A stretch of DNA of 63,768 nt, filler included, from Folioceros fuciformis (lineage: Eukaryota), in assembly GCA_049999805.1 (NCBI GenBank). It is 25 parts of 25 records of this genome, joined end to end, with 100 filler letters (N's around TTAATTAATTAA, not from the genome) between each part and the next. Parts side by side here need not be neighbours in the genome. Positions count along the whole stretch, not along the records: positions 1 to 12,816 come from JBNGIO010000025.1; 24 more parts are not named here. One strand, written 5' to 3'. Positions 1 to 4,325 of the stretch are shown here, piece after piece (within the stretch, counting starts at the first letter, position 1; every line of letters begins with the position of its first letter). Both the position numbers and the translations under genes were made by a program. The notes beneath the pieces are model-generated. The model saw only the letters and a program-made list of their open reading frames with translations. It was not told where the DNA came from and made no database searches.

Positions 1-470
1 GTCCTCCTGTGATCAATGAGACTCCTGTCGAGCAAGGTCTGGAATTCACCTCGAAACTCGTTACCCTGGTCTGTGAGCACTTCCGCGCAGCTCCCAAATC
101 GGCTGAGCACACACTGCAGAAACGCTCTGCTAGTGTAGTGTGAAGTTCTCTGTGGCAAGAACGCTACTTCAACCCACTTAGAGAAATGCTCAATCATGAC
201 CATGCAATGTCGGTTACCTTGCTTTGTGAGGGGAAGCTCTGGCATAAGGTCAACCGACCATCTAAAGAATAGCCCCCTGATTGGTAGGGAGTGCAACACC
301 ACATCCTGGGTGTTAAATCGGGCTTTGACTGCATCACATGTAGCACACTTAGCAACCACCTTCTCGACATCTGCATACATCCCTGACCAGAAATACGTGC
401 TTTTCAGCATGTGGTGTGTCCTCTTCACACCAAAGTGGCCAAGGGTTTCGTGCACCTTGGTCACTATGCC
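1..470 (-). other. Integrase domain (HHCC zinc finger plus first two Asp of DDE core)
   Basis: [13 protein letters not shown]...[10 protein letters not shown]..CATCD...RWSVDL...IEHFSKWVE...VLTDQGNEF. Confidence 0.92.
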
Positions 471-3400: not shown

Positions 3401-4325
3401 TCTCCTTCTTGAGCTCCTCCACTTGCCCAAGGAGAGCCTTACGACTCGGGCCCTTGCCCTTCTCGTTCTCAGCTGATGCAAGCTTGGGCTTCAGCTCTGG
3501 ATGAGCTTCCCAACACGCTGCCTCCATGTGACCCCATCTGCCACAAGACTTACAGGCTTCCTTGCCCTTCGGACCACCTGGCTTGTAGTCGCATTCGAAC
3601 GCCTTGTGCGCTCCACAGCATCTGCCACACTTCACAGCTGCTTGACCTGCATTGTTAGCTGGCCTCTCCTTCGGCGCATGTGGCTGCTTGCCATGTCCTG
3701 AGGACTGTGCTTGCTCCCGGTACTGGTACCTTGGAACAAACCTGGAATTCCCGTGTCCTCCAGACCCGTGCTGCGAGGAGCCCTTCACGACTCCGTGATT
3801 TTCCAAGTAAGCCTGGCTTACTGCATCTCCTTTGAGCACCTTCTCAGCAATTTGGTAGGCGTCTATCAACTGATATCTTTCTCCCATCGCTCCATGCAGC
3901 GAGTCCATTACCTTCCTTCTTTGTCTGGCAGGCAATGCTGCTATGAAGATCTTGGCAGCCTCCCTCATCGTCTTCACTTCCGTGTCTTCCACCAGAACCT
4001 TCAGTCTGAGGTAAGATGCACGCAATGTCTCGTTAGGCCTGAAAGAAAACCTCGACAGTTCCTGGATCTTTTCCAGTGAAGCTGTAGGAAACATGGTGGT
4101 TAACTTGGCGAACATCAAGTCCACCAGATGCTCGAGCTTGTCCTCGTCAGTAGGGGGTGCAGTCGAACCAGCCCTCTTGGCCGCCTCGTGCACTGCTTCT
4201 CTTCTCTCGGCCACCTTCAGGATCCCAGCCTTCTCATCTCTGTAATACATTAGAGCCTCACCCGCAAGGTAGGATGACATCTTCATGAACGCCATCCTCT
4301 GAGTGAACTCGTCCTTGTATTTCAT
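3..4325 (-). CDS. Gag-PR-DNMT-(partial RH)-IN polyprotein, over 1440 aa, open at the window edge
   Basis: Manual translation found no stop from ~4427 to base 3. Motifs: [13 protein letters not shown] and [14 protein letters not shown] knuckles, VLVDTGA protease, DNMT motifs, [28 protein letters not shown] RNase H, HETLGH..CATC zinc finger, WSVDL and LTDQG integrase core. Confidence 0.9.
   Translation of the reverse strand, partial: [1441 protein letters not shown]
790..1087 (-). other. C-terminal half of Ty3-type RNase H
   Basis: [56 protein letters not shown]...NADGLSR. The N-terminal DAS motif is absent. Confidence 0.9.
1280..2213 (-). other. C5-cytosine DNA methyltransferase domain within the polyprotein
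   Basis: Motifs in canonical order: I [19 protein letters not shown] (~2165-2213); II [23 protein letters not shown] (Cys codon 1926-1928); VI YILENV (~1803-1820); VIII [18 protein letters not shown] (~1669-1722); IX [9 protein letters not shown] (~1377-1403); X LGQAFD (~1305-1322). Confidence 0.9.
2660..2920 (-). other. Retropepsin aspartic protease domain
   Basis: [14 protein letters not shown] (DTG at 2898-2906) and C-terminal YDVLLGSD. Confidence 0.85.

Follow-up and report, generated by a model that had tools for sequence, protein, structure and literature searches.

The window examined here is a stretch of 63,768 nucleotides from Folioceros fuciformis (assembly GCA_049999805.1), and its first 5,634 positions, read on the minus strand, appear to carry a retrotransposon with a cytosine methyltransferase inside its polyprotein. 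Window 1-5634 (-) is probably, at about 75%, the 5' two-thirds of a Ty3/gypsy-type element of the 'Gypsy-DNMT3' kind, and a non-autonomous derivative. Its polyprotein runs gag, aspartic protease, DNMT3-like DNA methyltransferase (DNMT), RNase H fragment and integrase, with no reverse transcriptase (RT) between the DNMT and RNase H. DNMT-bearing retrotransposons invert the usual picture in which the host silences the transposon, and the published cases come from Symbiodinium and a single charophyte. The window adds a well-preserved RT-less copy from an organism that the protein databases do not cover, and its DNMT belongs to a large family with members in protein sets from a liverwort, a moss, a zygnematophyte and a chlorophyte. 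Whether the methyltransferase serves the element itself could be tested naturally on such a copy, in which DNMT and integrase stay in an intact frame although RT is lost.

Polyprotein frame and methyltransferase domain

The main minus-strand frame extends over window 3..4412, comprising 1470 codons with 0 stops, while the other two minus-strand frames contain 74 and 73 stops. It has no introns and runs off the window start, and its first in-frame ATG lies at 4325 (residue 30), the end that the sequence-only reading had given to its uninterrupted frame. The aspartic protease (2661..2960, residues 490-584; all features of the element lie on the minus strand) matches Pfam Asp_protease_2 with an E-value of 3.9e-6 and has its active site, VDTGA, at 2895-2909. 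The DNMT3-type cytosine-C5 methyltransferase domain follows at 1281..2216 (residues 733-1044), identified by motifs, profiles and a structural model. Downstream, a 63-residue linker (1092..1280) leads into an RNase H fragment at 852..1091 (Pfam RT_RNaseH, E 1.4e-26, residues 1108-1187). The integrase contributes a zinc-binding HHCC domain at 321..485 (Pfam Integrase_H2C2, PF17921, E 1.7e-16, residues 1310-1364) and a catalytic core at 3..263 (Pfam rve, E 4.9e-10, residues 1384-1468), which is cut by the window edge and covers profile positions 7-94 of 102. The claimed position of the methyltransferase, between a DTG protease and RNase H and integrase in a Ty3/gypsy-type polyprotein, is thus borne out by Pfam. 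Of the Ty3/gypsy order protease-RT-RNase H-integrase, all members except RT are present and in sequence, and Pfam recognised both the gypsy-type RNase H and the H2C2-finger integrase. In the gag region, a single CCHC zinc knuckle (C-X2-C-X4-H-X4-C) was located by pattern match at 3513..3554, with no Pfam zf-CCHC match to gag in the whole-frame scan, and the region aligns collinearly with gag of Closterium protein P0019 and Marchantia protein P0002.

The methyltransferase motifs occur in the collinear order of DNMT3 proteins, unlike the permuted order of DRM: motif I at 2172-2201, II at 2109-2126, III at 1995-2009, IV with the catalytic Cys at 1914-1940, VI with the ENV Glu at 1803-1817, VIII with the RxR at 1668-1697, IX at 1488-1514 and X at 1305-1322. 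The series proposed from the sequence was confirmed, with motif III as an addition, and a pairwise HMMER alignment puts the catalytic Cys, ENV Glu and RxR opposite the corresponding motifs of DNMT3A. Compared in the same way with PDB sequences, the isolated domain found its best match in the DNMT3A catalytic domain (E 2.6e-4). A profile built from 24 aligned relatives gave a much clearer result against PDB, scoring 93.7 bits with DNMT3A (E 8.7e-26, in three collinear aligned segments), about 84 with DNMT3B, 67 with DRM, 43 with M.HhaI and 30 with DNMT2, and DNMT1 was absent among its 56 PDB matches. NCBIfam returned a weak match to the dcm superfamily alone, at 18.7 bits.

An AlphaFold (AF2) model of the domain, built from the same 24-relative alignment, reached a predicted local distance difference test score (pLDDT) of 90 and a predicted template modelling score of 0.90. 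Foldseek searches with this model placed the catalytic domains of DNMT3A, DNMT3B and DNMT3C in all top positions, with a best E-value of 4e-17, target-normalised template modelling scores of 0.78-0.81 in most of the best rows and about 20% identity in the structural alignments. By profile comparison and predicted structure, the domain is a collinear DNMT3-type C5 methyltransferase fold, closer to DNMT3 than to other DNMT classes. It resembles cellular DNMT3A and DNMT3B and plant DNMT3/DRM proteins in its best profile and structural matches, in its DNMT3 collinear order and in a small target-recognition region. It differs from cellular DNMT3 in being embedded in a retrotransposon polyprotein without PWWP or ADD domains, neither of which was found in the Pfam scan of the frame, and in motif IV, which reads Trp-Glu-Cys rather than Ser/Pro-Pro-Cys.

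Pro-Cys is near-universal in C5 methyltransferases. The window copy instead has Glu-Cys-Lys at motif IV in place of Pro-Cys-Gln and so lacks the Pro-Cys signature. Of 164 related domains, 162 retain the Cys, and the residue before it is Glu in 97 and Pro in 54. Contigs from two other sequencing runs (X3 record 9 and X5 record 28) span motif IV with no difference listed there, and the Glu-Cys-Lys is therefore not a private mutation of the window copy.

Loss of reverse transcriptase and relationship to known elements

The absence of RT is evident from comparison with full-length relatives P0007, P0019 and P0048, whose order is gag-PR-DNMT-RT-RH-INT (PR, protease; RH, RNase H; INT, integrase). 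In BLASTP alignments, residues 733-1044 of the window protein (P0001) match P0007 712-1030, and residues 1112-1469 match P0007 1472-1827; the same gap appears against Closterium P0019 and P0048. The window has 63 residues where the relatives have about 440, so that an in-frame deletion has removed about 375 residues, namely RT and the N-terminal quarter of RNase H. Correspondingly, the RNase H match (PF17917) covers profile positions 26-105 of 105 only: the first 25 positions and the region of the first catalytic Asp are gone, and the E, D and D motifs are kept at 1008-1040, 921-938 and 789-812. Neither RVT_1 nor any other Pfam RT family was found in the frame at E<=1, and a tblastn search for gypsy RT over the whole window gave no match.

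The state of RT in the wider family was viewed at DNA level in 80 metagenome loci holding the nearest relatives of the window DNMT. RT follows the DNMT directly in 59; 15 loci end too soon to tell, four have the other domain order (RT-RH-DNMT) and one is ambiguous. The remaining locus, L015, has undergone an RT deletion of its own, 1114 nt long, when set against the sister loci L013 and L014, to which it is 91-92% identical. As metagenome loci mostly carry RT after the DNMT, its loss is a derived state of the window copy's lineage and not the design of the family. Locus L032, considered as a further RT-less element, was rejected as a truncated copy. An origin of the deletion by microhomology, suggested by a motif shared between the DNMT end and the RNase H start in BLAST against P0048, was dropped because Marchantia P0002 shows that the stretch is the DNMT C-terminus.

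Relatives of the DNMT domain are numerous: a search of representatives clustered at 50% identity found 962 at E<=0.001, of which 145 reached E<=1e-30. The family includes proteins of Marchantia polymorpha (38-40% identity), Closterium, Haematococcus lacustris and Sphagnum fallax, and occurs in many metagenomes; the highest identity of the window domain to any retrieved relative is 42%, and its closest Atlas cluster is mostly Streptophyta. Marchantia P0002 is collinear with the window gag, protease region and DNMT over 1040 columns. Domain location by BLAST in 183 relatives distinguished two orders, (gag)-PR-DNMT-RT-RH-INT and the commoner RT-RH-DNMT-INT-PHD.

A FastTree phylogeny was built from 164 family DNMT domains with a DNMT match of at least 270 residues, 20 shorter ones being dropped. 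All 103 RT-RH-DNMT-INT proteins fall in one 130-leaf clade without any protein of the PR-DNMT-RT type, at a weak support of 0.38. The window belongs to a clade of 29 leaves (support 0.82) that also includes Marchantia and Closterium and comprises 16 proteins of the PR-DNMT-RT type, 13 unassigned and none of the RT-RH-DNMT-INT type. By this placement, the window DNMT is grouped with those that lie between protease and RT in a large retrotransposon-borne family. The two domain orders separate on the DNMT tree, yet they have the Trp-Glu-Cys catalytic loop in common, the loop being mostly Gly-Trp-Glu-Cys-Gln across the family.

The kind of element was described before. According to de Mendoza et al. 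2018 (PMC5890265), KnitGypsy-Dnmt3 of Klebsormidium nitens carries intronless, non-rearranged Dnmt3 domains in the Pol open reading frame of a Gypsy element, with Ka/Ks below 0.2 and with repeats arranged as in DIRS elements. The window element is likewise intronless, with a non-rearranged DNMT3-type domain in a Pol polyprotein, retains key catalytic residues and gives some hint of purifying selection; it differs in lacking RT and in having a partial RNase H. On that published description, the window element matches the KnitGypsy-Dnmt3 kind. The sequence-only reading had cited this precedent correctly, and the concept is already published; a 2026 preprint (10.64898/2026.05.21.726589) still cites 'streptophytes (Gypsy-DNMT3)' as the known case. 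The further suggestion that the window may extend the known range cannot be claimed from it, since public protein sets already include relatives from Marchantia, Sphagnum, Closterium and Haematococcus. Literature searches returned no description of such elements in Marchantia (gene identifiers included), Sphagnum, Closterium or Haematococcus.

Repeats in the metagenome relatives provide a second point of likeness. Of 11 metagenome relatives with long flanks, four (L035, L028, L009 and L052) show a split direct repeat of the form A ... B-A-B, two (L070 and L080) show the A pair alone and five show no such repeat. In the four, the 5' end carries A and the 3' end B-A-B, at about 3.1-3.9 kb and 12.2-12.95 kb of each locus, and the A pairs are 91-92% identical. 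These split repeats match the DIRS-like arrangement given in the Klebsormidium description and so tie the DNMT clade of the window to the KnitGypsy-Dnmt3 kind. They also resemble PAT/DIRS-type repeats, yet the element carries a DDE integrase. A separate observation concerns the PHD finger, found after the integrase not only in the RT-RH-DNMT-INT-PHD order but also in 15 metagenome loci with the PR-DNMT-RT order; it lies about 600 nt after the integrase in L009, L013, L026, L028, L029, L031, L035 and others. Because of this finger, many elements of the family pair a DNMT3 domain with a histone-reader-type finger.

Two further kinds of element invite comparison. SymbioDIRS-Dnmt3 and SymbioLINE-Dnmt of Symbiodinium are also retrotransposon-borne DNMTs, but they belong to other retrotransposon classes (DIRS and LINE) and are, according to the paper, independent captures (PMC5890265). 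The window element is also comparable to non-autonomous derivatives of LTR retrotransposons such as LARD, TRIM and BARE-2-type elements, which are internally deleted, keep their terminal repeats, occur in multiple copies and depend for copying on the enzymes of a full-length relative. It differs from them in that it keeps a 1470-codon gag-protease-DNMT-integrase frame and has lost only RT, or RNase H too in a second form described below.

Copies of the element and rival explanations

Logan contigs of four sequencing runs were compared with window 1-6500, and contigs from three studies (runs X1; X3, 2017; and X5, 2023) match the element at >=99% identity. The segment from the protease end through the linker into the DNMT is spanned by contigs such as X3 2033-2726 and X1 2155-2454, and the DNMT end with the junction linker is spanned by X1 1087-1410, X3 1087-2040 and X5 1087-1359. 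Since these independent contigs cross both segments, the in-frame DNMT is not a chimeric join, the possibility under which the proposal would have fallen. Contig X3 record 9 reveals a second form of the element, joining position 688 to 1087 through 20 other letters, with matching loose ends in X1 and X5. The 398-nt segment at 689..1086, containing the RNase H core and linker, is thereby replaced, for a net loss of 378 nt or 126 codons, in frame. Either RT-less form may have arisen first, and the RNase H core may have been regained by recombination.

In run X1, depth is 181-664 over 1-4991, 881-1350 over 4992-5642 and 24-67 over 5643-6500, and contigs have loose ends at 5008, 5632 and 5634. From the doubled X1 depth, 5009..5634 is read as a 5' terminal repeat present twice per element, either a long terminal repeat or the 'A' unit of a split direct repeat; it starts with TG and ends with CA. 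No TGG-type or canonical primer-binding site was seen next to it. An untranslated leader with stops in all three frames extends from the repeat to the gag start (4610..5008), and the first 95 gag codons follow at 4322..4609, from the ATG at 4609 to a stop at 4322-4324, out of frame with the main frame here. The T-run at 4330-4335 is longer by two extra nucleotides in the window than in the X1 contig, a state shared by the X3 contig; without them, the 95-codon frame joins the main frame. In X3, which may be an RNA run, the element has a depth of about 8 and the flank 60-97, the reverse of X1, and these values were not used as evidence.

Differences between copies hint at purifying selection on the frame, as judged from sequence comparison. 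Synonymous sites make up 22.8% of sites in the frame, and of 25 distinct listed in-frame differences, 11 are synonymous and 14 are not (ratio about 0.38, one-sided binomial p 0.015), two pairs of differences sharing a codon. In the DNMT domain, six of ten differences are synonymous (ratio about 0.20, p 0.014). As a side observation, among the 61 places at which X1 and the window differ, T or A of the window stands against C or G of the contigs in 30 and the opposite holds in 16, and the observed/expected CpG ratio is about 0.5-0.6 in all window parts. The bias and the CpG ratio together fit decay by deamination of methylated cytosine.

Several observations weigh against the reading of window 1-5634 as a non-autonomous Gypsy-DNMT3 element. 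The 3' end of the element lies off the window, so that only the 5' repeat of any pair is inside it and an RT could in principle lie downstream of the integrase. No listed contig bridges 1087 in the window arrangement, and the adjacency of RNase H rests on the window assembly alone. The RT-less element is roughly ten-fold repeated relative to flank depth, where contig depth gauges copy number only roughly and the flank itself could be repeated. The window copy cannot make full-length gag, unless the two extra nucleotides are a homopolymer error of the assembly. The synonymous and non-synonymous counts come from listed differences only, 39 more not being shown, and a single X5 contig accounts for nine of the ten DNMT differences. 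The check by profile and structure that had been proposed for the methyltransferase divided: the structural side was positive, as described above, and PF00145 was weak, giving on the whole frame 19 bits at residues 804-877 (E 0.001) against a cut-off of 22, and on the isolated domain 22.3 bits, just at threshold, although 21 of the 24 aligned relatives match the family. Lys after the motif IV Cys is rare, occurring in 3/164 related domains. In yeast, finally, the Klebsormidium Gypsy DNMT3 domain produced no methylation, a result called inconclusive by the authors (PMC5890265). In the same paper, the SymbioDIRS-Dnmt3 domains methylate CG de novo in yeast.

That the DNMT-like domain has lost catalysis and survives as a relic, serving DNA or chromatin binding or acting as a structural spacer, appears unlikely, even with the Glu-Cys-Lys motif IV (Pro-Cys-Gln/Asn being replaced), the threshold PF00145 score and the Klebsormidium yeast result in its favour, for human DNMT3B was negative in the same yeast assay (PMC5890265), and the catalytic Cys is conserved across almost the whole family. 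The window copy retains the ENV, the RxR and motifs I, II, III, IX and X, the model shows a full DNMT3 fold at pLDDT 90, and the DNMT domain shows an excess of synonymous change. Another explanation holds that the element is autonomous, the missing RT reflecting a collapsed or mis-joined assembly or an RT located beyond the window edge. The window was assembled from short contigs, and the lack of a contig across 1087 and the truncated 3' end would both accommodate this account. It is nevertheless very improbable: contigs of X1, X3 and X5 carry the DNMT end and linker and then continue without RT, the frame is open across the junction, and 59 of the 60 informative metagenome loci of PR-DNMT-RT order have RT immediately between DNMT and RNase H.

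A host gene domesticated from a retrotransposon, encoding a cellular gag-PR-DNMT-IN protein (IN, integrase), would account for a long frame that stays intact despite RT loss and for the hint of purifying selection, and the gene models annotated in Marchantia include gag-PR-DNMT genes that lack RT (P0002). Such a gene has almost negligible probability here, given the roughly ten-fold depth over the flank, several sequence variants, a terminal repeat at double depth, the gag frameshift of the window copy and the lack of introns.

How the non-autonomous Gypsy-DNMT3 derivative might propagate can be outlined as follows. With RT and the RNase H start deleted in frame, the element would still supply its own gag, protease, DNMT and integrase, would have to borrow the RT and RNase H of a full-length relative to be copied, and has probably been amplified since the deletion. 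The DNMT, freed by the protease or still joined to integrase, could then methylate new element DNA or the insertion site, as de Mendoza et al. proposed. Methylation of the complementary DNA by a protease-released DNMT, which the sequence-only reading had put forward, is a hypothesis already in print; with RT missing, however, the window copy has no means of producing the cDNA that the DNMT would methylate. That the RT-less forms constitute a successful non-autonomous lineage, with gag-protease-DNMT3-integrase under purifying selection and parasitising the RT of a full-length relative, is doubtful and offered tentatively. If true, the methyltransferase would be of use to the element whether or not it reverse-transcribes itself, for instance as a mark on new insertions or on the integration complex, and the lineage could be an intermediate towards a host-domesticated DNMT/integrase gene.

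Composition of the window and further observations

The window consists of 25 pieces of 1.0-12.8 kb each, joined by N44-TTAATTAATTAA-N44 linkers, 24 in all, at window 12817-62438, and the adjacency of pieces is artificial. The DNMT-bearing element lies within piece 1 (window 1-12816). The element had been placed among land-plant-like copia elements, a setting that does not hold as physical context: the copia elements are on other contigs of the stitched window and therefore are not its physical neighbours, showing only their presence in the same assembly. Two near-complete Ty1/copia elements occur at window 16542-20806 (-) and 22542-26735 (-), with open frames of 1089 and 1165 codons, each occupying its own 5.3-5.5 kb piece; the closest database protein to the Ty1/copia polyprotein is 37% identical over full length. 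Some repeats found in the window adjoin the artificial linkers.

A second DNMT domain of the same family, decayed, is located at window 15388-16214 (+), inside the piece 15252-16280. It has about 35-40% protein identity to the main copy and no DNA similarity, is frameshifted and has lost its motif IV region. This points to a distinct and more ancient lineage of DNMT-bearing elements within the assembly.

Directly outside the outer boundary of the main element lies a perfect 85-nt tandem duplication (window 5637-5806). The adjoining stretch, window ~5800-10000, has 64% G+C, is C-rich with a GC skew of about -0.24 and contains many open frames on both strands, the longest of which has no Pfam match; its start is the flank seen at much greater depth than the element in run X3. 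An Rfam search of the window gave no match. Base composition is otherwise uneven among the pieces, with a 1155-nt piece at window 57273-58427 having 21% G+C against 37-60% in the other pieces.

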